A stretch of 64,000 bases of DNA, taken from Escherichia coli. Lineage in GTDB: Bacteria; Pseudomonadota; Gammaproteobacteria; Enterobacterales; Enterobacteriaceae. The stretch lies in assembly GCF_044324875.1 (NCBI RefSeq), contig NZ_CP172185.1. One strand, written 5' to 3'. The notes under the pieces were generated by a model. The model did no database searches, had not been told where the DNA came from, and worked only from the letters and a program-made list of their open reading frames with translations. This document shows, one piece after another, positions 24,938 through 63,825 of the stretch (positions are counted from its first letter, which is position 1; every line of letters starts with the position of its first letter). The translations under genes and the position numbers were made by a program.

Positions 24938-25055
24938 TTAGTGACAAGCAGAGCAGAAGCACGCGACGGTGCGCATTTCCCCTCACCCTAACCTCTCCCA
25001 AAATGGGCGAGAGAATAGTCCGCGCGCTTTTATTGCAATGTCATCAATCGTTTAA

Positions 25056-39026: not shown

Positions 39027-40145
39027 ATGAAATACGATCTCATCATTATTGGCAGCGGTTCCGTAGGCGCTGCCGCCGGGTATTATGCAACCCGTGCCGG
39101 TTTAAACGTGCTAATGACCGACGCCCATATGCCACCACATCAACACGGCAGCCACCACGGCGATACGCGATTAATTCGCCATGCTTATGGTGAAGGCGAA
39201 AAGTATGTCCCGCTGGTTCTCCGCGCGCAAACGCTGTGGGATGAACTCTCCCGCCACAACGAAGAAGATCCCATTTTTGTACGCTCTGGCGTCATTAACC
39301 TTGGCCCGGCTGATTCCACATTTCTCGCCAACGTCGCCCACAGCGCCGAACAATGGCAACTCAACGTTGAAAAGCTCGATGCGCAAGGGATTATGGCCCG
39401 CTGGCCGGAAATACGCGTCCCGGACAACTACATCGGCTTATTTGAGACTGATTCCGGTTTTTTGCGCAGCGAACTGGCGATTAAAACCTGGATCCAACTG
39501 GCGAAGGAAGCGGGCTGTGCGCAGCTGTTCAACTGCCCGGTCACCGCAATTCGTCATGACGATGATGGCGTAACTATTGAAACGGCTGACGGTGATTATC
39601 AGGCGAAAAAAGCGATTGTCTGCGCGGGAACATGGGTAAAAGACCTGCTCCCGGAGCTGCCTGTCCAGCCCGTACGCAAAGTATTTGCCTGGTATCAGGC
39701 CGATGGTCGCTATAGCGTGAAGAATAAATTCCCGGCGTTTACCGGTGAACTGCCCAATGGCGATCAATATTATGGTTTTCCGGCAGAAAACGACGCGTTG
39801 AAGATTGGCAAACATAACGGAGGCCAGGTTATCCATTCAGCGGATGAACGTGTTCCGTTTGCGGAAGTGGTCAGCGATGGTTCGGAAGCCTTCCCGTTCT
39901 TGCGCAATGTATTGCCGGGTATCGGTTGCTGCCTGTACGGCGCTGCCTGCACCTATGATAATTCGCCTGACGAAGATTTTATTATCGATACCCTACCCGA
40001 CCACGATAATACACTGCTCATTACCGGCCTGAGTGGGCACGGTTTTAAATTTGCGTCAGTTTTAGGGGAAATAGCTGCCGATTTTGCGCAAGACAAAAAA
40101 AGCGATTTTGATTTGACGCCATTCAGGCTTTCCCGCTTCCAATAA
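39027..40145 (+). CDS. solA: N-methyl-L-tryptophan oxidase
   Basis: 372-aa ORF with FAD dinucleotide-binding motif [12 protein letters not shown]. Confidence 0.96.
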
Positions 40146-40192
40146 TCATCATTACGGCCTCCAGAATGAGGCCGTTTTTACAGGAGTATTTA

Positions 40193-40306
40193 ATGCGTCG
40201 GCTGTTGCACTATCTCATCAATAATATTCGCGAGCATCTGATGCTTTATCTTTTTCTCTGGGGATTGTTGGCAATTATGGATCTGATCTATGTGTTTTAT
40301 TTTTAG
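40193..40306 (+). CDS. yceO: Small hydrophobic protein YceO
   Basis: 37-codon ORF read by hand ([37 protein letters not shown]), below ORF-track cutoff; position solA-yceJ matches K-12 yceO. Confidence 0.5.
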
Positions 40307-40566
40307 TTTTCCGCACTGACATAAACTGACAAATATTTAATCTCCCTTTCATTTAGCGTGAAAAATTGAATGAGATTATTCCTGCTTCTACAGCACTCAC
40401 CAGACATCTCTGATGCTGAACCCACTAAACTTATGAAGATTCTTTCATTATTAATTCAAAATTATTGAAATAAAAATAAATATCATTCAATTTGTTATTT
40501 TTGTGTTGCAATTCATTCTCCGACACGCCATTTTCTTTCTCTCGCAAATTCGTTTTGGATGCACTT

Positions 40567-41133
40567 ATGTCATTCACAAATACCCCTGAACGCTATGGTG
40601 TTATATCTGCGGCCTTCCATTGGCTAAGCGCAATTATTGTCTACGGCATGTTTGCTTTAGGTCTGTGGATGGTCACGCTCAGTTATTACGATGGCTGGTA
40701 TCACAAAGCACCCGAACTGCATAAAAGCATCGGTATTTTGTTAATGATGGGGCTGGTTATTCGCGTTCTGTGGCGCGTCATATCTCCACCGCCGGGTCCG
40801 CTGCAGAGTTATTCGCCCATGACTCGTCTTGGCGCAAAGGCTGGACATCTCGCATTGTACTTATTGCTGTTCGCCATCGGCATCAGCGGCTATCTGATCT
40901 CAACTGCCGATGGTAAACCGATCAGCGTTTTTGGCTGGTTTGACGTCCCCGCGACCCTCGCCGACGCTGGCGCACAGGCTGACTTCGCCGGTGCCCTGCA
41001 TTTTTGGCTCGCGTGGAACGTCGTAGTACTGTCCGTTATGCATGGATTTATGGCCCTGAAGCATCATTTCATCGATAAAGACGACACTCTGAAGCGCATG
41101 CTGGGAAAGTCGTCATCTGACTATGGAGTATAA
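40567..41133 (+). CDS. yceJ: Cytochrome b561 family protein
   Basis: ORF 40492..41133 trimmed to MSFTNTPERYGVISAAFHWL.. (188 aa); 4-TM di-heme His pattern. Confidence 0.92.
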   Translation: MSFTNTPERYGVISAAFHWLSAIIVYGMFALGLWMVTLSYYDGWYHKAPELHKSIGILLMMGLVIRVLWRVISPPPGPLQSYSPMTRLGAKAGHLALYLLLFAIGISGYLISTADGKPISVFGWFDVPATLADAGAQADFAGALHFWLAWNVVVLSVMHGFMALKHHFIDKDDTLKRMLGKSSSDYGV

Positions 41134-41136
41134 AAA

Positions 41137-41712
41137 ATGAAAAAAAGCCTGCTTGGTTTAACCTTCGCTTCCCTGATGTTCTCTGCCGGTTCAGCGGTTG
41201 CCGCCGATTACAAAATTGACAAAGAAGGTCAGCACGCCTTTGTTAACTTTCGCATCCAGCATCTTGGCTATAGCTGGTTATATGGCACCTTTAAAGATTT
41301 CGACGGTACTTTTACCTTTGATGAAAAAAATCCGGCTGCCGATAAAGTGAATGTGACAATTAACACCACCAGCGTCGATACTAATCACGCCGAACGCGAT
41401 AAACATCTTCGCAGTGCAGATTTCCTCAATACTGCAAAATATCCACTGGCAACATTCACCTCCACCAGCGTGAAGAAAGACGGTGACGACCTGGATATTA
41501 CCGGCGATCTGACGCTGAATGGCGTAACCAAACCCGTCACGCTGGAAGCGAAATTAATTGGTCAAGGCGACGACCCGTGGGGTGGTAAACGTGCAGGCTT
41601 CGAGGCCGAAGGCAAAATTAAGCTCAAGGACTTCAATATCAAAACAGATTTAGGTCCAGCTTCTCAGGAAGTGGATCTGATTATTTCAGTGGAAGGCGTA
41701 CAGCAGAAGTAA
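41137..41712 (+). CDS. yceI: Periplasmic YceI-family polyisoprenoid-binding protein
   Basis: 191-aa ORF with signal peptide. Confidence 0.94.
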
Positions 41713-41753
41713 GCGTGAAATGTTGCCGGATGGCACGCATCCGGCAATGATAT

Positions 41754-42806
41754 TTATTCTGTTGGATCAGGAATGCCCAGTGTTGTATTCAGACGTCCAC
41801 GAGACTTATTAAAGATCTTATTGCCATTTTCACGTCCTGCCCGACGGCGTCGCTGTTCTTCAGGCGGTAACGCGCTTTCTTCGCAGCAAATCTCACTACA
41901 ACAACCTTTGTATTTTTCCGCACATACTGGACACTGAATAAAAAGCAGGTGGCAGCCATCATTTTTACAGTTGGTATGGCTGTCGCACGGCGCACCGCAC
42001 TGGTGGCAATGCGCGATAATCTCATCAGATATACGTTCGCCCATCCGCTCGTCAAAAACAAAATTTTTGCCAATAAAACGTACCGGTAAACCCTGCTCGC
42101 GCGCCTTGCGGGCGTATTCAATAATTCCGCCCTCGATATGCCAGACTTTATTGAATCCGTTATGTTTCATCCAGGCACTGGCTTTTTCACAACGAATGCC
42201 GCCGGTGCAGTACATGACGATTTTTTTATCTTTATGTGCCTGCATCATCTCGACTGCTTTTGGCAACTGCTCACGGAAGGTATCTGCCGGAATTTCCAGC
42301 GCGTTTTCAAAGTGCCCCACTTCATACTCATAGTGGTTACGCATGTCGATAAACAATGCATCGGGATCGTCAAGCATGGCGTTCACTTCCGCCGCTTGCA
42401 GATACTCACCCACATTGCTGGCATCGAAGTGAGGATCGTCAATACCGTCGGCAACGATACGATCACGGACCTTCATGCGCAGTACCCAGAAGGATTTCCC
42501 GTCATCATCCAACGCGATATTCAGGCGTAAGCCCTCTAAAGCCGGGTCGAAGGCATAAAGCTGCGCGCGAAATGTTTCAACATTGCTCGCAGGTACGCTG
42601 ATTTGCGCGTTAATGCCCTCATGCGCCAGATACACTCGCCCAAAAACATCCAGCGCGGTAAACAGCTGATATAAAGCGTCACGGGTCGCCTTAGGATCGG
42701 CGATGTGGAAATACTTGTAAAACGAAATGGTGGTTCGCGGTTCGCTCTCAGCCAACATTTTGGCTTTTAACGCGTCGTTGGAAATGCGGTTGTGTAACAC
42801 TGGCAT
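41754..42806 (-). CDS. trhO: tRNA uridine(34) hydroxylase (rhodanese-domain protein YceA)
   Basis: ORF 41754..42860 trimmed to [10 protein letters not shown].. (350 aa); rhodanese active-site Cys (CTGGIRCEK) and C-terminal Cys-rich tail. Confidence 0.92.
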
Positions 42807-43030
42807 GGTGTACGGTTCCTGCGAGATGGGAAAGTAAAAATCCGCGGCATGATATAGCAATTATCGATAATTAACATCCACACATTTTACGCTACATTTG
42901 CGCATTAAAAATTATTTGTTATTTACAAGCGCGGCAATTTCGCCCAGTCTTCAGCCACAAATTTTGGTTGCGGGCGAAAAAATGCGACAATACATACAAT
43001 TGCCCGTATAGGTTGAAAAACAGGATTGAT

Positions 43031-43951
43031 ATGACGAATCTACCCAAGTTCTCCACCGCACTGCTTCATCCGCGTTATTGGTTAACCTGGTTGGGTATTG
43101 GCGTACTTTGGTTAGTCGTGCAATTGCCCTACCCGGTTATCTACCGCCTCGGTTGTGGATTAGGAAAACTGGCGTTACGTTTTATGAAACGACGCGCAAA
43201 AATTGTGCATCGCAACCTGGAACTGTGCTTCCCGGAAATGAGCGAACAAGAACGCCGTAAAATGGTGGTGAAGAATTTCGAATCCGTTGGCATGGGACTG
43301 ATGGAAACTGGCATGGCGTGGTTCTGGCCGGACCGCAGAATAGCCCGCTGGACGGAAGTGATCGGCATGGAACACATTCGTGACGTGCAGGCGCAAAAAC
43401 GCGGCATCCTGTTAGTTGGCATCCATTTTCTGACACTGGAGCTGGGTGCGCGGCAGTTTGGTATGCAGGAACCGGGGATTGGCGTTTACCGCCCGAACGA
43501 TAATCCACTGATTGACTGGCTACAAACCTGGGGCCGTTTGCGCTCAAATAAATCGATGCTCGACCGCAAAGATTTAAAAGGCATGATTAAAGCCCTGAAA
43601 AAAGGCGAAGTGGTCTGGTACGCACCGGATCATGATTACGGCCCGCGCTCAAGCGTTTTCGTCCCGTTGTTTGCCGTTGAGCAGGCTGCGACCACGACCG
43701 GAACCTGGATGCTGGCACGGATGTCCGGCGCATGTCTGGTGCCCTTCGTTCCACGCCGTAAGCCAGATGGCAAAGGGTATCAGTTGATTATGCTGCCGCC
43801 AGAGTGTTCTCCGCCGCTGGATGATGCCGAAACCACCGCCGCGTGGATGAACAAAGTGGTCGAAAAATGCATCATGATGGCACCAGAGCAGTATATGTGG
43901 TTACACCGTCGCTTTAAAACACGCCCGGAAGGCGTTCCTTCACGCTATTAA
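43031..43951 (+). CDS. lpxL: Lipid A lauroyl acyltransferase
   Basis: ORF 42968..43951 trimmed to [17 protein letters not shown].. (306 aa); LpxL/HtrB family. Confidence 0.95.
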
Positions 43952-44122
43952 ATCTCCCATGCCGGATGCTTCAGAAGGGTATCCGGCATTACCACAGCAA
44001 ATCCCCCTGATTTAGCGATAAAAGCTCTCTGGATTGCGCCCCCTGGAAGTCGGGCGCATAATTAGTGTGCTTATCTTTTCTTCTTATGTTCACCGCGCCT
44101 GGCGCACCAACAGCGGATTGCT

Positions 44123-45326
44123 ATGTCACCCTGTGAAAATGACACCCCTATAAACTGGAAACGAAACCTGATCGTCGCCTGGCTAGGCTGTTTTCTTACG
44201 GGTGCCGCCTTCAGCCTGGTAATGCCCTTCTTACCCCTCTACGTTGAGCAGCTTGGCGTTACGGGCCACTCCGCCTTGAATATGTGGTCCGGTATTGTCT
44301 TCAGCATTACATTTTTATTTTCGGCCATCGCCTCACCGTTTTGGGGTGGACTCGCCGACCGTAAAGGCCGAAAACTCATGCTATTACGCTCTGCCCTCGG
44401 CATGGGCATCGTGATGGTGTTGGCAGTTTTTGATCCTACGGGCGCTTCTTGGGTTACTTGGCGGATTTGTCCCCAACGCTAATGCTCTTATCGCCACACA
44501 AGTACCACGTAATAAAAGCGGCTGGGCGCTGGGGACGCTTTCCACAGGCGGCGTTAGCGGTGCGTTGCTCGGCCCAATGGCTGGCGGTTTGCTTGCCGAT
44601 AGCTACGGCTTACGTCCGGTATTCTTTATTACCGCCAGTGTGCTCATACTCTGCTTTTTCGTCACCCTGTTTTGCATCAGAGAAAAATTCCAGCCGGTCA
44701 GCAAAAAAGAGATGCTGCACATGCGGGAAGTGGTGACATCACTTAAAAAACCGAAACTGGTACTCAGCCTGTTTGTCACTACGTTAATCATCCAGGTGGC
44801 GACGGGCTCAATTGCCCCCATTCTGACGCTGTATGTCCGCGAACTGGCGGGTAACGTCAGTAACGTCGCCTTTATCAGTGGCATGATCGCCTCGGTGCCA
44901 GGCGTGGCGGCTCTGCTGAGTGCACCACGACTCGGCAAACTTGGCGATCGAATCGGACCCGAAAAGATCCTGATTACGGCGCTGATCTTTTCTGTACTGC
45001 TATTGATCCCAATGTCTTACGTTCAGACGCCATTACAACTTGGGATTTTACGTTTTTTGCTCGGTGCCGCCGATGGTGCACTACTCCCCGCCGTACAGAC
45101 ACTGTTGGTTTACAACTCGAGCAACCAAATCGCCGGGCGTATCTTCAGCTATAACCAGTCGTTTCGTGATATTGGAAACGTTACCGGACCATTGATGGGA
45201 GCCGCGATTTCAGCGAACTACGGTTTCAGAGCGGTATTTCTCGTCACCGCTGGCGTAGTGTTATTCAACGCAGTCTATTCATGGAACAGTCTACGTCGTC
45301 GTCGAATACCCCAGGTATCGAACTGA
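44123..45326 (+). pseudogene. mdtG: MFS efflux transporter MdtG, disrupted by a frameshift (apparent ~23-nt deletion near 44422/44423)
   Basis: Two ORF-track entries in different frames (44123..44482 and 44430..45326) together match one MFS transporter; first frame ends at TAA 44480..44482 after 19 out-of-frame codons; span of 1204 nt is not a multiple of 3. Confidence 0.85.
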
Positions 45327-45408
45327 TTTTTCGCCTTTCATACTTGCAAAAGCGGAGAATCAGCTATCCTTTTCCCTGAAACCTCATCAACTCAAAGGGA
45401 GAATCGTG

Positions 45409-45783
45409 ATGACCATGTACGCAACGCTTGAAGAAGCCATTGACGCTGCACGCGAAGAATTTCTTGCAGACAACCCCGGCATCGACGCCGAAGATGCGAA
45501 TGTGCAACAGTTCAATGCCCAAAAATACGTTTTGCAGGACGGCGACATCATGTGGCAAGTTGAGTTTTTTGCCGACGAAGGGGAAGAAGGTGAATGTTTA
45601 CCTATGCTTAGCGGTGAAGCCGCGCAAAGTGTCTTTGATGGCGACTATGATGAGATAGAGATCCGCCAGGAGTGGCAGGAAGAGAATACATTACATGAAT
45701 GGGACGAGGGGGAATTTCAGCTTGAGCCACCGCTGGATACCGAGGAAGGACGCGCAGCAGCTGATGAGTGGGATGAACGTTAA
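45409..45783 (+). CDS. msyB: Acidic protein MsyB
   Basis: 124-aa highly acidic ORF (MTMYATLEEAIDAAREEF..). Confidence 0.93.
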   Translation: MTMYATLEEAIDAAREEFLADNPGIDAEDANVQQFNAQKYVLQDGDIMWQVEFFADEGEEGECLPMLSGEAAQSVFDGDYDEIEIRQEWQEENTLHEWDEGEFQLEPPLDTEEGRAAADEWDER

Positions 45784-46011
45784 TTACTCATACGGGCCAT
45801 GATGGATGTCGATCGGCAGCAGTAAAGTATCAAAAACCAGGGAGAATGGCAGATCAAGGATTGTGACATAACGCCAGGCGGAGTCACGCACATCCCATTG
45901 CACACCGGGATAATATTGGTTGCCATGCCCCTGCCCCGGTATAGTGCGACTAATAATGCTGCCACAGCCACTCAGCAAGGTCACCATGATGCTCACCACA
46001 ATTAAACGCAT
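45784..46011 (-). CDS. yceK: Lipoprotein YceK
   Basis: 75-aa ORF with lipobox LSGC. Confidence 0.9.
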   Translation of the reverse strand: MRLIVVSIMVTLLSGCGSIISRTIPGQGHGNQYYPGVQWDVRDSAWRYVTILDLPFSLVFDTLLLPIDIHHGPYE

Positions 46012-46075
46012 TTGATACCTCTTCCGTAAAAAAATACCGGCATAACGCCGGTATTTTTATTGGCTCGTTGTTTTT

Positions 46076-46172
46076 GCCGAATGCGGCGTGAACGCCGTAT
46101 CCGACCTACAAAATCTTGCAAAATCAACACATTGCAGGAGCGATGTAGGCCTGATAAGCGTAGCGCATCAGG
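46076..46172. repeat. REP/BIME-type extragenic palindromes
   Basis: gccgaatgcggcgtgaacgccgtatccgacctac and gtaggcctgataagcgtagcgcatcaggc, inverted REP copies between yceK and opgH. Confidence 0.65.
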
Positions 46173-46183
46173 CAACTACGTTT

Positions 46184-50366
<4,183 letters not shown>

Positions 50367-50648
50367 TCAGCACGCTGGCTCATGGATTAAGCACCTGATT
50401 GCAACCGTTTTCACTTTCCGTGCTTCTCCTAAAGACAGAAGCATCGACTTCGTGTAGGGTTTGCCAGCAAATTTATTTATCAACCGTCTTACAGACGCTT
50501 CCATTCTGGTTAGTGGTAGCGATGATGCTATGCATAAAAACCTTGAAGCCTGCGCCTGGCGCGGTCAGGTCGGTGTCGCTATGGCAACAAGCCTAAAGGC
50601 ATAACCCGACAGGGATAAGACGAAAAATCCGAGATTAGTTAACCATAT

Positions 50649-51806
50649 ATGAACCCAGTACCCGCGCAACGTGAATATTTCCTCGACTCCATCCGCGCCT
50701 GGCTGATGTTGTTAGGGATCCCTTTTCATATTTCTTTAATCTATTCGAGCCATACATGGCATGTGAATAGCGCCGAACCGTCATTGTGGCTGACCCTTTT
50801 TAATGACTTCATCCACTCGTTCCGCATGCAGGTATTTTTCGTTATATCCGGGTACTTTTCCTACATGCTTTTTTTACGCTATCCCTTGAAAAAATGGTGG
50901 AAAGTACGTGTCGAACGTGTAGGTATCCCGATGTTAACAGCCATCCCCCTACTGACATTACCGCAATTTATTATGCTGCAATACGTCAAAGGGAAAGCGG
51001 AAAGTTGGCCTGGCCTGTCATTGTATGACAAATATAATACGTTGGCCTGGGAATTAATATCACACCTGTGGTTTTTACTGGTGTTAGTAGTCATGACGAC
51101 GCTGTGCGTATGGATATTTAAACGCATCAGAAATAATTTAGAAAATTCTGATAAAACGAATAAAAAATTCTCGATGGTAAAACTATCGGTGATTTTTTTG
51201 TGCCTCGGCATCGGCTATGCGGTAATAAGAAGAACGATTTTTATTGTGTATCCGCCCATTCTGAGTAACGGCATGTTCAATTTTATTGTCATGCAAACGC
51301 TATTTTATTTGCCGTTCTTTATCCTCGGCGCACTGGCTTTCATTTTCCCTCATCTTAAAACCTTGTTTACCACGCCGTCTCGTGGCTGTACCCTTGCAGC
51401 AGCATTGGCATTTGTCGCTTACTTACTCAACCAGCGCTATGGCAGTGGCGATGCCTGGATGTACGAAACCGAGTCGGTGATCACCATGGTCCTCGGTCTG
51501 TGGATGGTGAATGTGGTCTTCTCCTTCGGCCACCGTTTGCTTAACTTCCAGTCAGCGCGGGTGACTTACTTTGTTAATGCATCGCTGTTTATCTATCTGG
51601 TTCACCACCCGTTAACGCTGTTTTTCGGCGCGTACATTACACCGCACATCACATCCAACTGGCTTGGTTTTCTCTGTGGCCTGATATTCGTAGTAGGGAT
51701 TGCGATAATTCTGTATGAAATTCATTTACGCATCCCGTTACTGAAGTTTTTGTTCTCTGGTAAACCGGTTGTTAAGCGTGAGAACGATAAAGCACCAGCC
51801 CGTTAA
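50649..51806 (+). CDS. opgC: Glucan succinyltransferase, membrane acyltransferase family
   Basis: 385-aa polytopic ORF divergent from opgGH. Confidence 0.92.
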
Positions 51807-51813
51807 GCCGCGT

Positions 51814-53244
51814 TTATAATAACCATTCCATGGGCAATATCGATGCCAGTCTGACCATAACCCGCTTCCAGAAACTGGTGGCGGGTTCTTTTTTGAGAAC
51901 AATTTCTTTCTTTGCATGACGATCAACCCAGTTGATCCGTCCCCACCTGTCCAGACGGAGCTGCCAGGCCGCATCATACTGGCTCTGAATAAAGCGTTTA
52001 TCAATTAACTGTGCCAGCGTTTCGCTCTCTATCACGAACCCCATTTCAGTATTGAGCAATGTCGAACGCGGATCGAAATTGAAAGAGCCGATAAACACCG
52101 TTTTACCATCGATGCTAAAGGTTTTAGCATGCAGGCTGGCACCGGAATTACCGGTTATGCCGCGATCGTGTAACGTACTACTTTGTTCACGCGTCGGCTT
52201 GAGTTCATATAATTCCACGCCGTAGCGGAGCAATTTTTTGCGCCAGCGCGCGTATCCGGCATGGACGACAGCAACATCGTTAGCGGCAAGAGAATTGGTT
52301 AGGATCGCAATCTTTACCCCTTTTCTCACCATCCGTAAGAGTTGCGCCACACCTGCGCGTGTCGGTACAAAATAGGAAGAGATAATATCGATGCGTTCAC
52401 TGGGTGAGCCCATGATATCGAACAGGCGCTGCGGTAACAGTGAATGCCGTTTTGCCTTGCCCTCCCCTTTCGCCGGATCATCACTTAATAAACGTGTTTT
52501 CGCCCAGATAAGCGGCAACGTTCCATCAACCAGATGATTTATAAACGGGCTGGATTCCATTTTGCGTAAATAACGATGCGTCATGGCATCGTTGTGCCAG
52601 GATGCTGGTAACTCGATGCGATCCGCCATTTCACCTTCCGGGACATCCAGCACCTGCTGTAGGGGTGAAACCGATTTGCAATACCAGTAGCGGGCGAAAT
52701 CATCGGCAACGTCCTCTACAACTGGTCCTATTGCCATGACATCTAAATCCGAAAAAAGTGGCTCTTCCCCTGCCCCAAAATAGGCATCACCAATATTTCG
52801 TCCTCCCACCAGGGTAACCACGCCATCAACAGTGAAACTTTTATTGTGCATACGGCGATTGAGACGGGAAAAGTCGGTGATATAACCAAGCGGACGTAGC
52901 AAGCGAAACGAGAAAGGATTAAAAAGCCGGACTTCAATGCGGGGATGACTGTCAAGCAAGCGTAAAATGTCGTCAAGTCCGGGTGTATTGTTGTCGTCCA
53001 GCAACAAACGGACGCGAACGCCACGCTTTGCTGCGGCTAACAGGGCGGAAAACAGTAACCGACCCGACATATCGTCCTGCCAGATGTAATACTGAACATC
53101 CAGCGTATGCTCTGCCATTTCGGCCAGACGATACCGGGCGGCAAACGCATCCAGACTTTTCTCCAGAGGAAAAAGGCCACACTGACCGGGATGTTGCGAA
53201 CACAGTGGCAGCACCGCGCTCGCCAGCCGGGGCAAATCATTCAT
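51814..53244 (-). CDS. clsC: Cardiolipin synthase C (PLD superfamily)
   Basis: ORF 51814..53304 with two HxK(x4)D PLD motifs (HNKSFTVDG and HAKTFSIDG); start chosen at internal Met (MNDLPRL) and is uncertain. Confidence 0.88.
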
Positions 53245-53770
53245 CTCCTTGTTGAGTAAGGAGTCTTTCGTAGAGGTGGGCGTTTTCTTCATCATAACAG
53301 ACAAAGTATACCTGTTCGGGTAAAGCGTGACGGGTAATAAATTCTGAAACGGTTTTTACTGCGATTTCAGCCGCTGCCGCACGAGGGTAACCATAAACTC
53401 CAGTACTGATTGCAGGAAAAGCCACTGACGTATAGCTGTTTGCTGCCACCAGTCGCAGGCTATTGAGATAGGCATCCTGCAAAAGCTGGTCTTCGTTTTG
53501 TTCACCACCACGCCAGACTGGCCCGACGGTGTGCACTACGGCTTTCGCAGGAAGATCGCCTGCAAGCGTAATAACGGCATGCCCCGTAGGGCAATCGCCC
53601 TGCTGCTGCCTGACTTTTAAACAGGCATCCAGCAGGGCCGGACCCGCTGCGCGATGAATGGCCCCATCGACGCCGCCGCCTCCCATTAATGACGGATTAG
53701 CCGCATTCACAATCACATCAACGGCCAGTTTGGTAATATCACCCTGCACAACATGAATACGCGTTTTCAT
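53237..53770 (-). CDS. ymdB: Macro-domain O-acetyl-ADP-ribose deacetylase
   Basis: 177-aa ORF with macro-domain fold motifs ([15 protein letters not shown]). Confidence 0.94.
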
Positions 53771-53864
53771 AACGCCTCCTTACACCTTCTTGTTTCTTAA
53801 GTGTACAGCAGGCTTTTTGGTTAAATCGCATTTTTCTGCTCAGCAACGTGAGTTGTTCAGAAAC

Positions 53865-54199
<335 letters not shown>

Positions 54200-54205
54200 A
54201 TCATC

Positions 54206-54629
<424 letters not shown>

Positions 54630-54687
54630 ATTCTTCTCCCGAAAAAAAACAGGGCTTGCGCCCTGTTTCTTTAATACAGAGGATGTA

Positions 54688-55146
54688 TTAGTACTGATGA
54701 GCGGTCGCGTTGTTACCAAAGCCAACCTGAGTGACGTTAACGCTGGAGTTAGATGCAGTCTGGTCAACAGCAGCACCGTTACCGCCACCGAACTGTTTAA
54801 CTGTCATATGAGAGTCTTTACCGTTCCACTGATCAAGAGTGGCGCTGTTACCAAAGCCACGTTGGGTCAGATCGATTGAGCTGTCATCTGAGCCCTGACC
54901 AACATCTGCACCGTTACCACCACCATGCTGGGTAATAGTAAGATCAGAGTTACGAGCATCAGCTTGCAGAGCAAGTGCAGAGTTACCACCACCGTACTGA
55001 TAAATATTCAGCTCTGAATTCGGGCCGCTGTTATTACCGCCACCACCGTGGTTACCGCCACCGCCGCCGTACTGAGGAACAACACCTGCCAGAGCGCTAC
55101 CGGAGAATACGATTGCTGCAATTGCTGCTACTTTTAAAAGTTTCAT
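54688..55146 (-). CDS. csgA: Major curlin subunit
   Basis: 152-aa ORF with signal peptide and five imperfect S-x5-Q-x-G-x-G-N-x-A-x3-Q repeats. Confidence 0.96.
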   Translation of the reverse strand: MKLLKVAAIAAIVFSGSALAGVVPQYGGGGGNHGGGGNNSGPNSELNIYQYGGGNSALALQADARNSDLTITQHGGGNGADVGQGSDDSSIDLTQRGFGNSATLDQWNGKDSHMTVKQFGGGNGAAVDQTASNSSVNVTQVGFGNNATAHQY

Positions 55147-55186
55147 GTAAAACCCCCATCGGATTGATTTAAAAGTCGAATGGAAA

Positions 55187-55642
55187 TTAACGTTGTGTCA
55201 CGCGAATAGCCATTTGCGACTGTCTCTGCACTACAATTGCCGTTTTTTGAGTACCATACTGTGTAATATTTGCTTTATTACCAGAACCTTTCTGGATAAT
55301 CATCGCAGTATTACCATAAGCACCTTGCGAAATACTGGCATCGTTGGCATTGCCCGCCTGATCAATATATGCAAGGTTATAATCTCCTGTCTGGTCAATC
55401 TTTGCCCGGTTGCTACTACCTTCTTGCGCAACAACCGCCAAAAGTTTTGAGCCTCCCTGCCGTAACTGAGCACTATTATTAGTCCCAGCTTGACCAATTA
55501 TGGCTGCCTGATTAAATGAAGACTTACTCAATTCATTTACCGCGAAGTTATATTCTGAATTAGCTAAATCATAACCTGCTGCGGCTGCAATCCCAGGCGC
55601 ACCCAGTATTGTTAACATCATAAATAACAATTTGTTTTTCAT
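55187..55642 (-). CDS. csgB: Minor curlin / nucleator
   Basis: ORF 55187..55669 trimmed to MKNKLLFMMLTILG.. (151 aa); curlin repeats. Confidence 0.95.
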   Translation of the reverse strand: MKNKLLFMMLTILGAPGIAAAAGYDLANSEYNFAVNELSKSSFNQAAIIGQAGTNNSAQLRQGGSKLLAVVAQEGSSNRAKIDQTGDYNLAYIDQAGNANDASISQGAYGNTAMIIQKGSGNKANITQYGTQKTAIVVQRQSQMAIRVTQR

Positions 55643-56396
55643 GTTGTCACCCTGGACCTGGTCGTACATTTAAGAAATTAAATCATTTCAACTTGGTTGT
55701 TAACGCAACCTGTATTTTGTTAACGCTGCGTTACGATGGAAAGTATGTCTGCGGAAATATTTTTAATAACTCACCCGCGCGTTGTATTTTTCTTTTTTTG
55801 TTCATACCAAAGTATTAAAACCCACGTAAATACGCTGTTATCTACGCAAAAAAATATTTTGTTTTCTTTTAAATCTCCGTTTTCCGCAATCAAAAATCAC
55901 CATACAGCCATTCTTCTTGCCCGTCGCTGATTGCTGCGATATGTCTTGCGCACAAGCCGTGACAAACCTCGTCTTTTTGCAGTAAAAAATTGTCCACGGT
56001 GGTGTAGAGAAAAAACAAGAACGTTTTACATGACGAAAGGACTACACCGAAATATTTTTTATATGCATTATTAGCAAGTTAGCACCATTTGTATGATTTT
56101 TTAAAATTGTGCAATAAAAACCAAATGTACAACTTTTCTATCATTTCTAAACTTAATAAAACCTTAAGATTAACATTTTAATATAACGAGTTACATTTAG
56201 TTACATGTTTAACACTTGATTTAAGATTTGTAATGGCTAGATTGAAATCAGATGTAATCCATTAGTTTTATATTTTACCCATTTAGGGCTGATTTATTAC
56301 TACACACAGCAGTGCAACATCTGTCAGTACTTCTGGTGCTTCTATTTTAGAGGCAGCTGTCAGGTGTGCGATCAATAAAAAAAGCGGGGTTTCATC
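55643..56396. promoter_or_regulatory. csgBAC / csgDEFG divergent regulatory region (csgD promoter, OmpR site, csgD 5' UTR, csgB promoter)
   Basis: 754-bp AT-rich intergenic region; OmpR-type direct repeat gttacatttagttacatgtttaac near 56189..56213; candidate csgD -10 TAGATT at 56238..56243, about 150 nt upstream of csgD ATG. Confidence 0.6.
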
Positions 56397-57047
<651 letters not shown>

Positions 57048-57051
57048 AGCC

Positions 57052-57441
57052 ATGAAACGTTATTTACGCTGGATTGTGGCGGCAGAATTTCTGTTCGCCG
57101 CAGGGAATCTTCACGCCGTTGAGGTAGAAGTCCCGGGATTGTTAACTGACCATACTGTTTCATCTATTGGCCATGATTTTTACCGAGCCTTTAGTGATAA
57201 ATGGGAAAGTGACTATACGGGTAACTTAACGATTAATGAAAGGCCCAGTGCACGATGGGGAAGTTGGATCACAATAACGGTCAATCAGGACGTTATTTTC
57301 CAGACTTTTTTATTCCCGTTGAAAAGAGACTTCGAGAAAACTGTCGTCTTTGCACTGATTCAAACTGAAGAAGCACTAAATCGTCGCCAGATAAATCAGG
57401 CGTTATTAAGTACGGGCGATTTGGCGCATGATGAATTCTAA
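57052..57441 (+). CDS. csgE: Curli secretion specificity factor
   Basis: 129-aa ORF with signal peptide. Confidence 0.94.
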
Positions 57442-57465
57442 ATAAAAAATTGTTCGGAGGCTGCA

Positions 57466-57882
57466 ATGCGTGTCAAACATGCAGTAGTTCTACTCATGCT
57501 TATTTCGCCATTAAGTTGGGCTGGAACCATGACTTTCCAGTTCCGTAATCCAAACTTTGGTGGTAACCCAAATAATGGCGCTTTTTTATTAAATAGCGCT
57601 CAGGCCCAAAACTCTTATAAAGATCCGAGCTATAACGATGACTTTGGTATTGAAACACCCTCAGCGTTAGATAACTTTACTCAGGCCATCCAGTCACAAA
57701 TTTTAGGTGGGCTACTGTCGAATATTAATACCGGTAAACCGGGCCGCATGGTGACCAACGATTATATTGTTGATATTGCTAACCGCGATGGTCAATTGCA
57801 GTTGAACGTGACAGATCGTAAAACCGGACAAACCTCGACCATCCAGGTTTCGGGTTTACAAAATAACTCAACCGATTTTTAA
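57466..57882 (+). CDS. csgF: Curli nucleation/assembly factor
   Basis: 138-aa ORF with signal peptide. Confidence 0.94.
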
Positions 57883-57908
57883 GCCCCAGCTTCATAAGGA
57901 AAATAATC

Positions 57909-58742
57909 ATGCAGCGCTTATTTCTTTTGGTTGCCGTCATGTTACTGAGCGGATGCTTAACCGCCCCGCCTAAAGAAGCCGCCAGACCGACATTAATGCC
58001 TCGTGCTCAGAGCTACAAAGATTTGACCCATCTGCCTGCGCCGACGGGTAAGATCTTTGTTTCGGTATACAACATTCAGGACGAAACCGGGCAATTTAAA
58101 CCCTACCCGGCAAGTAACTTCTCCACTGCTGTTCCGCAAAGCGCCACGGCAATGCTGGTCACGGCATTGAAAGATTCTCGCTGGTTTATACCGCTGGAGC
58201 GTCAGGGCTTACAAAACCTTCTTAACGAGCGCAAGATTATTCGGGCGGCACAAGAAAACGGCACAGTTGCCATTAATAACCGAATCCCGCTGCAATCTTT
58301 AACGGCGGCAAATATCATGGTTGAAGGTTCGATTATCGGTTATGAAAGCAACGTTAAATCGGGCGGTGTTGGGGCAAGATATTTTGGGATCGGTGCCGAC
58401 ACGCAATACCAGCTCGATCAGATTGCCGTGAACCTGCGTGTCGTCAATGTGAGTACCGGTGAGATCCTCTCCTCGGTGAACACCAGTAAGACGATACTTT
58501 CCTATGAAGTTCAGGCCGGGGTTTTCCGCTTTATTGACTACCAGCGCTTGCTGGAAGGGGAAGTGGGTTACACCTCGAACGAACCCGTTATGCTGTGCCT
58601 GATGTCGGCTATCGAAACAGGCGTCATTTTCCTGATTAATGATGGTATCGACCGCGGTCTTTGGGATTTGCAGAACAAAGCAGAACGGCAGAATGACATT
58701 CTGGTGAAATACCGCCATATGTCGGTTCCACCGGAATCCTGA
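57909..58742 (+). CDS. csgG: Curli secretion channel lipoprotein
   Basis: 277-aa ORF with lipobox LSGC. Confidence 0.96.
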   Translation: MQRLFLLVAVMLLSGCLTAPPKEAARPTLMPRAQSYKDLTHLPAPTGKIFVSVYNIQDETGQFKPYPASNFSTAVPQSATAMLVTALKDSRWFIPLERQGLQNLLNERKIIRAAQENGTVAINNRIPLQSLTAANIMVEGSIIGYESNVKSGGVGARYFGIGADTQYQLDQIAVNLRVVNVSTGEILSSVNTSKTILSYEVQAGVFRFIDYQRLLEGEVGYTSNEPVMLCLMSAIETGVIFLINDGIDRGLWDLQNKAERQNDILVKYRHMSVPPES

Positions 58743-58747
58743 TAGAT

Positions 58748-58776
58748 AAAAATGCCGGAATTATCATCCGGCATTT
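58748..58776. terminator. Bidirectional hairpin terminator between csgG and ycdZ
   Basis: aaaatgccgga-attatca-tccggcatttt, symmetric hairpin with A/T runs on both sides. Confidence 0.65.
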
Positions 58777-58805
58777 TACTGTTTAAGCGAAAGCGTGAGT
58801 GCCCC

Positions 58806-59297
58806 TCACGCTTTATTTTTGATTTGCTGCTCACGGTGAGCGGTCTTCGTACTACGCGCCGCCAGCCACAGGCCGCTGTTTTTCATTGCGTAACCAAATA
58901 CCAGTCCAAGCGCCAGCGAAGGTAACACCAGTTTCCAGTCACCCTGCCCGGCAAACGTCGCGCATGCGCCTATAAACGTCCCCGGAACAAATGAAAGCAA
59001 CAGCTGTTTCGCCTGAATACACATCAGAAACGCGACAATACCGGTTATGACATAACCGAGAATTTCCAGATGTGGTGCCAGTGCACTACCGTAAATAATG
59101 ACCATCGCCCACACCACGCCACTAAGCAGGGTTGCAGCGGAGATCGCCAGCCCTTTCAGCCCACCTTGCGGGCAGGCAAAGTAGGCCGTACAGCCCAGGA
59201 AGCCCGCCCAGCTTAGTAAGCCCAGGGAAACAGCCACCCATCCCCAGATACCGGAGAGAATGCCTGTTGTGATTGCAATAGAGAGAAGTATGTTCAT
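58806..59297 (-). CDS. ycdZ: DUF1097 inner membrane protein YcdZ
   Basis: ORF 58806..59345 trimmed to MNILLSIAITTG.. (163 aa); polytopic membrane protein. Confidence 0.88.
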   Translation of the reverse strand: MNILLSIAITTGILSGIWGWVAVSLGLLSWAGFLGCTAYFACPQGGLKGLAISAATLLSGVVWAMVIIYGSALAPHLEILGYVITGIVAFLMCIQAKQLLLSFVPGTFIGACATFAGQGDWKLVLPSLALGLVFGYAMKNSGLWLAARSTKTAHREQQIKNKA

Positions 59298-59398
59298 GCC
59301 GCGCATGATAGCAGAAAACGCGGCCATGAATGAGATCGAGCACACATTTTATGCAACAACAAATTATCTGTTGCAGTTATGAGTGATGCAGATCACAT

Positions 59399-59953
59399 TT
59401 ACTCTTCAGAATCTTCTTCCAGCTCGTCCCACATTGCACTAATAGCATCGCGGGTTAGCGGTGCCATGGTGCGCCAGAAAGGCGTAGTTGCATGGGCCTC
59501 CACTTTGCCAAGGAACGCACCACACCAGGGTAACAGATACTCACTGAACAGTGTTTCCAGTGCTTCGCTCTCATCTTCCGTTGACTGATCTTCCAGCCAG
59601 GAAGCCGCGAGCAGCAATGTGCCGATGTGATCGGCTGGCGTATCCGCTAATGGCATCCCCCGTTCGGAAAGAAAAGCGCGCACTTCCGCTTCCGTCGCGC
59701 CCTCAACCCATGCGCTACGATATGGCGGCACAGCACATTCATCGCCGATAAACAACGCATTGTAATCGGCAGAGACTTGCGCCATATCACAGCTTTTCTG
59801 TAAACGCGTCAGTAACTCATCCTGCTCCAGTGGCCAGTTCGCAGCCAGTTTCCCCTCACGAATCAGGGTAAACAGCGGCACCAGTAAAGGATCTTGCGGT
59901 TGGCGGTAATAGAGCGAACCCAGCACACGACAGAGGATAGAAAACTCGTTCAT
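59399..59953 (-). CDS. ycdY: TorD-family redox enzyme maturation chaperone YcdY
   Basis: 184-aa ORF; paired with ycdX as in E. coli. Confidence 0.9.
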   Translation of the reverse strand: MNEFSILCRVLGSLYYRQPQDPLLVPLFTLIREGKLAANWPLEQDELLTRLQKSCDMAQVSADYNALFIGDECAVPPYRSAWVEGATEAEVRAFLSERGMPLADTPADHIGTLLLAASWLEDQSTEDESEALETLFSEYLLPWCGAFLGKVEAHATTPFWRTMAPLTRDAISAMWDELEEDSEE

Positions 59954-59976
59954 TAATATATTTCCATTACTAGTAA

Positions 59977-60714
59977 TTAAAGGTCTGCAAATTCCGCAAT
60001 CGGTGCCATACCGCGAGATTCAAGGAAGTTCAGTAAGCGGCGCGGAGAAACATTCAAAATGCGCTCTGGCGGAAAATCTACCGCGTCGAGGATTTTAAGA
60101 CACTCTTCAAATTCACCCATGGTAAACGCGGTGTGAGAATCCGAACCTAATGCCACCCAACCTCCAGCGTCACGTACCGCTGCGGCTACCGCACGACAGT
60201 TGTCTTCACTGCCCTTACGTGAGTGTAAAAATGAGGAATTATTGATTTCCAGCGCCACCTGATGTTTCGCAGCTGCTTCAGCAACGGCTTTAACATCTAT
60301 TTCATATTTCGGATTTCCGGGATGGCTTATTATATGCACATTGCCGCTGGCGATAGTGGCGATCATCGCTTGCGTATTAGTCGCTTTGTCATGCGGCGCA
60401 AACACCGGCTCATGAAAACCGGCAATAATCAGATCCAGCGAATCAAACATTTTGCCACTGCAGTCAATTTCACCGTCAACATTTTTAATGTTAGCTTCGA
60501 TGCCGCGCAGGATCCCAACCCCATCAACCACTCGCGGCCAGATACGCATGTTAATGAAGTGCCAGTGATGCGGCGCATCTTCCATATCCGGGCCATGATC
60601 GGTGATCGCAAAAAGTTTAATGCCCTTTTGTTTGGCCTGGGCAATGTAATCACTCAATGTGCTATATGCATGCGTGCTGGCAACGGTATGCATATGAAGG
60701 TCGACGGGATACAT
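59977..60714 (-). CDS. ycdX: PHP-family zinc phosphatase YcdX
   Basis: 245-aa ORF with PHP His motifs ([10 protein letters not shown].. HPGNP..). Confidence 0.93.
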
Positions 60715-60768
60715 AACTCTCTCCTGTATTCAATTCCCGCCAAGGATAGCAGGAAACCTGATGCTTTA

Positions 60769-61746
<978 letters not shown>

Positions 61747-61940
61747 TTATCGTTATGATCTACAAAGACCACCAGCATAACAAATCCGTGGTCGGTGGCA
61801 AAAAAAGCAGATTTCGCTTATTAAAACTGCATATTGATTGAAGTTTGAATAAACGCGCGATTTTTTAAAAAAGTTTGTTGACCTCAGGTCATGATTTCCC
61901 TAAATTAGCGCCCGTTCCAGCAAGACAGGAACGACAATTT

Positions 61941-62028
61941 GGTGAGGTGTCCGAGTGGCTGAAGGAGCACGCCTGGAAAGTGTGTATACGGCAACGTATC
62001 GGGGGTTCGAATCCCCCCCTCACCGCCA
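61941..62028 (+). tRNA. serX: tRNA-Ser (anticodon GGA)
   Basis: 88-nt sequence GGTGAGGTGTCCGAGTGGCTGAAGGAGCACGCCTGGAAAGTGTGTATACGGCAACGTATCGGGGGTTCGAATCCCCCCCTCACCGCCA with long variable arm and encoded CCA. Confidence 0.97.
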
Positions 62029-62180: not shown

Positions 62181-63023
62181 CTATACTGCCAGCATGTCAG
62201 GATAGTGTCTGACGATAATATCATTCAGTCTGTCAACCAGTTCCGGTTTCCTGAACGTGATATGCGCGGAGCCTTTCCTGAAGTATCTGATGCTGAACAT
62301 CTCATCCTCATAGCATGCTTCACCCTGAACGGACCGGATGTGCTCATCCAGACGAATGAGGATATTGTCCCGGTCAGTGGGTATGGGTTTACCGCTGAAC
62401 AGATACAGTATCCTTTCCAGGTCGGCAAGCCGCCCGGCCTGCGGACCATGGTTCAGACCAAATCCCCACCAGTCCCATTTCACCAGGTTGTTGAGGATAA
62501 TCTTACTGCCGAATTTACAGGGTGACCCGCTGTTGTGCGTCCGGCTCAGTCCTCTGAAGAGGTTGATGACGCCCCGTTCAGCCATTTCATCCCTGTTACG
62601 GTGCAGTTGTTCAGACGTACTCAGGATATTCGCTTCGCTGATTTCCGGAAAATTATCCTCCTCCAGTGAACGGTACCATTCATCACGCGCCTGTGCATCC
62701 ATCAGACTCAGCATCCCGGAGCGTTGCATCAGGTCACGCCAGATTTCACGGTCAAGGTTCCGGGTGATGGCTTTCATTGCGGTTTCCGGTTTTTCCATCA
62801 GCCAGCAGCCACAGCGAAAATCCTGTTTCACGGCCCAGTCCCGGGCCGTTTTACCTCCGATGCTTTCTGTCATTACTGAGATTTCTGCCAGTTGCCGGAT
62901 AAGCCTTTCGGTTTGTTGCAGTGCTTCATTCCGTACCGTCACAACGTGCCGGATACTGGTTGAGCAGATAACGTCCGTATGTCCGTTAAGCGTTTCCGGA
63001 CGGGAGACTGTGATATCAGACAT
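62181..63023 (-). CDS. Uncharacterised island protein, DUF4942-like
   Basis: 280-aa ORF; family assignment from memory of proteins found downstream of cbtA in CP4-type islands, not from a search. Confidence 0.7.
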   Translation of the reverse strand: MSDITVSRPETLNGHTDVICSTSIRHVVTVRNEALQQTERLIRQLAEISVMTESIGGKTARDWAVKQDFRCGCWLMEKPETAMKAITRNLDREIWRDLMQRSGMLSLMDAQARDEWYRSLEEDNFPEISEANILSTSEQLHRNRDEMAERGVINLFRGLSRTHNSGSPCKFGSKIILNNLVKWDWWGFGLNHGPQAGRLADLERILYLFSGKPIPTDRDNILIRLDEHIRSVQGEACYEDEMFSIRYFRKGSAHITFRKPELVDRLNDIIVRHYPDMLAV

Positions 63024-63336: not shown

Positions 63337-63825
63337 TTACCAGTCGAAAGTGGGAAAACCCGGCAGACATTCAGCGCCGGCATCCAGATGAATGAGACTG
63401 ACGCCATAACGCCGGATGAGAGTGACAACCAGACGACGAAACGTTTTTGACAGACCCAGGCGTTTAAGCCGCAGAGCCGGGTACGACCACGCATCAGTAC
63501 GTAACAGATATCCGCTGCCTGTAAAATGAATCCATTCTGATTCGCCGTTGTCATTCGTCTGATGCGACAGCGAGTACAGCCAGGCATTGTCCTGCTCCGT
63601 GATATGTGCGGTACTGCAGCGTATGCCGGTAAGGGCCGCAAATGGTGGCATGCAGTCTGCTGAGGTCCGGTCAGATTCATCAGCAACACGAAGGGAACAG
63701 CCATTATCGCAGACCACGTTAATCAGTTCAGCGAGATTAACACCATCGACGTCAGCGACAATGCGCCCCATGTTCAGTGCCTGTACGTTAACGCTGTCGG
63801 CTTCCAGTGTCAGGGACAGTTTCAT
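63337..63825 (-). CDS. Uncharacterised protein downstream of cbtA (YeeW-like position)
   Basis: 162-aa ORF whose ATG overlaps the cbtA stop in an ATGA junction, implying translational coupling with the toxin gene. Confidence 0.75.
   Translation of the reverse strand: MKLSLTLEADSVNVQALNMGRIVADVDGVNLAELINVVCDNGCSLRVADESDRTSADCMPPFAALTGIRCSTAHITEQDNAWLYSLSHQTNDNGESEWIHFTGSGYLLRTDAWSYPALRLKRLGLSKTFRRLVVTLIRRYGVSLIHLDAGAECLPGFPTFDW

Follow-up and report, generated by a model that had tools for sequence, protein, structure and literature searches.

An intact csgB-csgD control region of the K-12 type between the curli operons of an Escherichia coli strain

In Escherichia coli K-12 MG1655, the curli operons csgBAC and csgDEFG diverge from an intergenic control region at NC_000913.3 1103197..1103950, between b1040 and b1041, and the length of this spacer in E. 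coli is given as 754 bp (PMC12713406). A 2025 footprinting paper used two primers to define a csgD promoter fragment from -335 to +67, which holds all mapped csgD sites (PMC12388358). More than 10 factors bind this fragment, including H-NS at -201..+28 and RcsB at -31..+54 (PMC12388358, PMC3535384, PMC4152358), and the initial binding zone of RcdA extends over -308..-192 (PMC3535384). The corresponding locus of Salmonella enterica (csgD-csgB, or agfD-agfB) also has a 754-bp spacer and the same divergent architecture. Variants of the system have been described in pathogens: in O157:H7 43895/FB38, an A>T transversion (AATCT>ATTCT) turns sigma-S-dependent curli expression constitutive (PMC7232329), and in Shigella flexneri 2457T, csgA and csgG are annotated as pseudogenes (PMC6854044).

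The window analyzed here, by which we mean the whole stretch of 64,000 nucleotides, carries the same control region between minus-strand csgB, whose ATG is at 55642, and plus-strand csgD, whose ATG is at 56397. As bounded by these start codons, the spacer occupies 55643..56396 and is again 754 bp long, with csgDEFG running rightward and csgBAC running leftward from it; csgA and csgC as well as csgE, csgF and csgG flank the region as open reading frames orthologous to the K-12 genes. In a gapless alignment with K-12 over 55643..56396, 744 of the 754 bases are identical (98.7%), with 10 substitutions and neither an indel nor an IS element. Identity is complete from 56170 to the csgD ATG (-79..+148) and over 55643..55798, the 156 bp beside csgB, while the csgB-proximal 158 bp as a whole are 99.4% identical. 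The window is colinear with K-12 MG1655 1,159,649..1,097,562 in reverse orientation, forming a 62-kb block with 98.2-98.6% identity. Because the spacer shares 744/754 bases with K-12 and has orthologous flanks within this colinear block, its match reflects homology rather than chance.

These comparisons bear out the preliminary description, which had called the 754-bp spacer intact: the coordinates are exact, the length is that of K-12, and the promoter core, the 5' UTR and the csgB-proximal region are unchanged. The base-by-base comparison with K-12 that it had proposed places none of the ten substitutions in the csgD promoter core. Among complete E. coli genomes, 5329 of 5426 (98.2%) contain the spacer at 80% coverage or more, and 536 records are at least 99% identical to that of the window. 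The closest matches in this set, strain C4 and strain 19KM1831, are 99.9% identical, with a sole mismatch at 55903. As every experimentally anchored element that could be placed is present base for base as in K-12, we consider it very probable that this is a standard, already known E. coli curli control region that is intact in cis and K-12-like. Small mechanically called open reading frames within the spacer (41-64 aa) were rejected as genes, as they fall in an AT-rich central part that is unconserved even within Escherichia.

The csgD P1 transcription start is placed at 56249 (+/-1 base) on the plus strand and is anchored in three independent ways. First, the primers that delimit -335 and +67 match the window at 55914 and 56315, which sets +1 at 56249. 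Second, the csgD 5' UTR is reported as 148 nt (PMC4152358). Third, the ES056 RNA-seq transcript has a 5' end at most 1 nt from a mapped TSS (PMC4676190), and its Rfam family (RF02752) matches 56250..56341 with 119.7 bits against a gathering score of 43. Initiation at 56249 in the window strain is thus the expected, predicted position. Upstream of it, the preliminary description had proposed TAGATT as a candidate -10 element, and this hexamer is indeed present at 56238..56243 on the plus strand, 6-11 bases upstream of the P1 start (-11..-6), in the K-12-identical, wild-type form that is tightly regulated. Over the stretch from the -35 to the -10 element, including the bases between them (56207..56248), the window matches both K-12 and other Escherichia species at every position (100%). 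A scan of 55600..56450 for generic sigma-70 promoters and terminators returned two promoter-like matches against 3.5 expected, neither of which is P1. This is the expected outcome for a sigma-S-type promoter, for which the scan is uninformative, and because the scan misses P1, the -10 call depends on identity with the promoter that was mapped by experiment in K-12, and not on consensus strength.

The hexamer also bears on whether the locus could be a promoter-up variant of the O157:H7 ATCC 43895 or Salmonella PcsgD type, which would make curli at 37 C independently of sigma-S. The transversion in O157:H7 ATCC 43895/FB38 affects the same locus and the same hexamer position, and we infer that AATCT>ATTCT (PMC7232329) reads on the csgD strand as TAGATT>TAGAAT. 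That variant gives curli at 37 C, whereas the window is wild-type: TAGAAT of the O157 43895 type is absent, and TAGATT is kept. Changes of the Salmonella PcsgD type are likewise missing from the window, where 56207..56248 and the OmpR repeat equal those of K-12 and the promoter spacer has no insertion. With the -10 element, the -35 to -10 stretch, its spacing and the OmpR site all as in K-12, the known mutations are refuted at the sequence level; we found no point in support of a constitutive variant, and the chance that the region is one is vanishingly small. The known constitutive promoter mutation is thereby ruled out for the window strain. Because the -10 element is the wild-type TAGATT rather than the promoter-up TAGAAT, conditional regulation of the K-12 kind would be expected instead.

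Upstream of the -35 element, the direct repeat GTTACATTTA GTTACATGTT at 56190..56209 on the plus strand is of the D1 type and is centered at -49.5 from P1. We take this repeat, with its exact center, to be the activating OmpR site of E. coli, and it stands here as a predicted site. The preliminary description had noted an OmpR-type repeat at about 56189..56213; it is present, and its limits can be refined to 56190..56209, where GTTACATTTAGTTACATGTT is the only sequence in the 64 kb to fit the OmpR pattern (0 chance matches expected). K-12 has the repeat unchanged (100% identity), and Salmonella, in which the D1 OmpR site is placed at about -51 (PMC13304067), has it at 80% identity. Farther upstream, at 56103..56135 (-146..-114) on the plus strand, the palindrome AAAATTGTGCA-N12-TGTACAACTT is identical to K-12 and well conserved in Salmonella. 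This palindrome is presumably the binding site of MlrA, a putative assignment that follows Ogasawara et al. 2010 (FEMS Microbiol Lett 312:160).

Downstream of P1, the csgD 5' UTR (56249..56396, plus strand) comprises 148 nt and is 100% identical to K-12, in which it serves as a docking platform for the sRNAs OmrA/B, McaS, RprA, GcvB and RydC. Its minimum free energy fold contains a first hairpin at 56313..56370 and a second at 56387..56412, and this predicted fold reproduces the published hairpins SL1 (-83..-28) and SL2 (-10..+16) (PMC4152358). Six or seven Hfq-dependent sRNAs are described to pair around SL1 and the SD sequence (PMC4152358). On the csgB side, a candidate CsgD box, CGGGTGAGTTA, lies upstream of csgB at 55767..55777 on the minus strand, within the K-12-identical 55643..55798. 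The pattern CGGGKGAGNKA has a single match in 64 kb, which is statistically weak, as 0.24 matches are expected and 22 of 100 shuffles contain at least one. The consensus is that of Brombacher et al. 2003, and the box is putative.

By analogy with the K-12 and Salmonella literature, we infer a regulatory scheme in which sigma-S RNA polymerase, together with MlrA, OmpR-P and IHF, would start csgD transcription at P1 in stationary-phase cells when temperature and osmolarity are low. MlrA would be freed for this by the DgcE/PdeR/DgcM c-di-GMP switch. H-NS, CpxR, RcsB and high OmpR-P would oppose csgD transcription, and RcdA may modulate P1 as well. Hfq-dependent sRNAs would pair with the 5' UTR, leading to a translation block or to decay of the message. 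CsgD, once made, would then switch on the csgBAC promoter across the spacer (PMC12713406).

To place the ten substitutions, we built an alignment of the spacer, three other Escherichia loci (86% identity overall) and two Salmonella loci (64% overall, also 754 bp). The differences from K-12 lie at 55799, 55888, 55897, 55903, 55908, 56000, 56006, 56075, 56082 and 56169, which correspond to -450, -361, -352, -346, -341, -249, -243, -174, -167 and -80 relative to P1. Eight of them fall in the central 300 bp of the spacer, one at the edge of this segment and one at -80. Despite the shared length and architecture, the Salmonella spacer is only 64% identical to that of the window, and this identity is unevenly distributed: it is 75% in the csgB-proximal 158 bp, 45% in the central 300 bp, 82% in csgD -146..-1, 95% in the -35 to -10 stretch (56207..56248), 58% in the first 62 nt of the UTR and 86% in the part of the UTR from SL1 to the SD sequence. 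The low values in the central 300 bp and in the first 62 nt of the UTR are consistent with reported differences in RcsB and sRNA control (PMC12388358). The conserved blocks, namely the csgB-proximal segment, -146..+1 and the 3' part of the UTR, contain no K-12 differences save that at -80. As judged from this alignment, all ten differences are lineage polymorphisms of an ordinary kind, in parts of the spacer under little constraint.

The substitution nearest the csgD promoter, A at 56169 (-80) where K-12 has G, is found as an exact 41-mer in 2050 of 5322 genomes (~39%) and sits within a locally variable patch that is scrambled in the other Escherichia loci too. Five substitutions (-249, -243, -174, -167 and -80) are located within -335..+67, and of these, -249 and -243 are inside the initial RcdA binding zone and are common to the whole haplotype. 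The one change that distinguishes the window from C4 and 19KM1831, a G>T at 55903, lies at -346 relative to P1 and 261 bp upstream of the csgB ATG. It is private: we find no exact 41-mer match for it on either the window's or the K-12 haplotype in the 5426 complete E. coli genomes. This base belongs to the weakly conserved central part of the spacer and misses the -335..+67 fragment by 11 bp. Across 40000..62000, the nearest complete genomes among the 5426 (E. coli 042 and a few others) are 99.2% identical over 22 kb, and complete RefSeq assemblies therefore sample the lineage of this strain poorly, at least over this interval. We considered 55903T as something special and rejected it, because a private base change is expected at no more than 99.2% identity to the nearest genome over 22 kb. 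One private change in 754 bp is below the background divergence, and the spacer is, if anything, more conserved than its surroundings.

The distribution of these substitutions is also the evidence by which to judge whether the haplotype is a quantitative regulatory variant, in which at least one of the ten shifts the csgD level, the temperature range or bistability relative to K-12. The candidates would be -80, between the MlrA and OmpR sites, -249 and -243 in the RcdA zone, and the private -346. Five substitutions do fall in the densely bound -335..+67 fragment, and single-base changes in the spacer can matter for curli expression, both in O157:H7 (PMC7232329) and according to reviews (PMC13304067). 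Serogroup-specific csgD promoter types also differ measurably in activity (PMC3874044), but the change among natural variants in non-O157 STEC was ~30% at most and was judged to play a small role (PMC3874044). Moreover, the substitutions keep clear of the conserved blocks, ~39% of genomes have the -80 allele, and 55903 lies beyond the mapped fragment, where identity to Salmonella is just 45%. On balance, a quantitative variant of this kind is improbable. Still less likely is a measurable retuning of curli regulation that could be assigned to 55903T or to the five substitutions in -335..+67, for which the route might be changed occupancy by RcdA, H-NS or IHF, or changed curvature of the spacer DNA. 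Were such retuning real, the strain would represent a poorly sampled lineage with an atypical curli response to temperature or osmolarity.

Beyond the ordinary, K-12-like spacer, all seven csg genes have a start and a stop codon and no internal stop, and all have the K-12 length except csgA, which carries one additional in-frame Gly codon. The genes are thus full length and, as the preliminary description had stated, intact. On the plus strand, csgD (56397..57047) encodes 216 aa with S19P and S110A relative to K-12, and csgE (57052..57441), csgF (57466..57882) and csgG (57909..58742) encode proteins identical to those of K-12. On the minus strand, csgB (55187..55642) and csgA (54688..55146; 152 aa) encode proteins identical to those of strain 19KM1831, and csgC (54297..54629) encodes a protein whose exact sequence occurs on at least 1000 contigs. 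The exact sequences of CsgE, CsgF and CsgG are each found on at least 1000 contigs as well, and so is that of CsgD, which equals WP_000481500.1 of three other strains and is a common non-K-12 allele. Relative to K-12 MG1655, with which the window shares the spacer length, the flanking genes and their orientation, the differences at this locus thus include P19 and A110 in CsgD and the extra Gly in CsgA alongside the ten spacer substitutions. CsgA further differs from K-12 by T61A, N110D and E112H, and no other gene of the locus approaches the divergence of csgA, which has 93.3% nucleotide identity to K-12 versus 97-99.8% for its neighbors; this suggests a distinct allele class or a recombination patch. 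For five of the seven Csg proteins, the exact allele is very common. CsgA and CsgB have no exact entry in a collection of 15 billion proteins, though their translations are correct and RefSeq strain 19KM1831 encodes identical proteins; this is probably the result of a gap in the look-up, and we do not take it as novelty.

Hallmarks of a disrupted csg locus, whether of the Shigella/EIEC type or with an IS-interrupted spacer (an IS element, a deletion, a frameshift or a stop), are absent from the spacer and from the seven csg genes. The contrast with Shigella drawn in the preliminary description accordingly holds: S. flexneri 2457T shares the csg gene order and the homologous locus, but its csgA and csgG are pseudogenes (PMC6854044), whereas both are intact in the window along with the other five. 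A disrupted spacer does occur naturally in E. coli strain 74-2 from a broiler chicken (NZ_CP050044.1, 2873982..2875511), in which an IS1A lies inside the csgB-csgD spacer and splits the match into two pieces. Strain 74-2 is a natural example of the kind of disruption that the window is without.

From the intact locus, the preliminary description had gone on to call the strain curli-competent. The part of this claim that concerns the cis region and the seven genes stands, but the phenotype does not follow, as trans-acting regulators are required and intactness is near-universal; because 5329 of the 5426 genomes carry the region, its presence discriminates little. Curli require an intact cis region, but such a region does not suffice. 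Deletion of rpoS, mlrA, ompR, ihfA, hfq or csgD abolishes csgBA expression (PMC12713406), and none of the required trans-acting regulator genes rpoS, mlrA, ompR, ihfA and hfq is located in the window (K-12 1,097,562..1,159,649). Actual curli production therefore depends on trans-acting genes outside the window, and the intact spacer by itself makes no prediction of phenotype.

It is accordingly possible, if unlikely, that the strain is intact in cis yet curli-negative under standard conditions owing to a lesion elsewhere, such as in rpoS, ompR, ihf, hfq, dgcE, dgcM or motility genes, or a prophage in mlrA. Precedents exist: ~95% of O157:H7 strains carry both operons and yet are curli-negative (PMC7232329), and among 19 non-O157 STEC, a prophage in mlrA, a mutated rpoS or lost motility, and not the promoter, accounted for all 14 weak biofilm formers (PMC3874044). 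Where curli are lost in nature, the cause usually maps to rpoS, mlrA or motility genes. The dependence of csgBA expression on regulators encoded outside the window points in the same direction, and with a lesion elsewhere, the intact spacer would say nothing about phenotype. Set against this, there is no positive evidence of any such lesion, and the flg cluster, which comprises the only motility genes in the window, is intact, such that this part of motility is not visibly broken. The seven intact csg genes are, arguably, also consistent with selection to keep the system.

Several features elsewhere in the window depart from K-12. Within the flg cluster, flgE has an in-frame 3-bp length difference and 96% identity to K-12, with the other flg genes intact, and the flgF-flgG spacer (24948..25038) fails to align with its K-12 counterpart, being ~91 bp here versus ~125 bp. 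In the MFS efflux pump gene mdtG (44123..45326), 23 bp of the K-12 sequence (gene positions 299..321) are deleted at the junction 44420/44421, and the resulting frameshift leads to a stop at codon 120 of 408. No contiguous match to an 80-bp probe spanning this junction exists in the 5426 complete E. coli genomes, and the 23 bp are kept in every genome among the best matches listed; either mdtG is a pseudogene private to this strain or the assembly is in error here. At the far end, colinearity with K-12 stops directly 3' of the tRNA-Ser gene serX (61941..62025), where a genomic island with a CP4-like conserved end module begins at 62026 and runs off the end of the window (64000). The end module encodes DUF4942 (62181..63023) and DUF5983 (63337..63825) proteins, both on the minus strand, and relatives of the island have DUF957 and the CbtA toxin annotated. 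Only seven records match this island end at 99% or more, and paralogous copies with 80-90% identity occur about three times per genome.

The curli control region is among the most studied promoters of E. coli, and as it is found here in its usual state, the result in itself matters little. In practice, the K-12 annotation can be transferred to the region. If the strain proves to be curli-negative, a cis-acting or structural-gene cause is ruled out.
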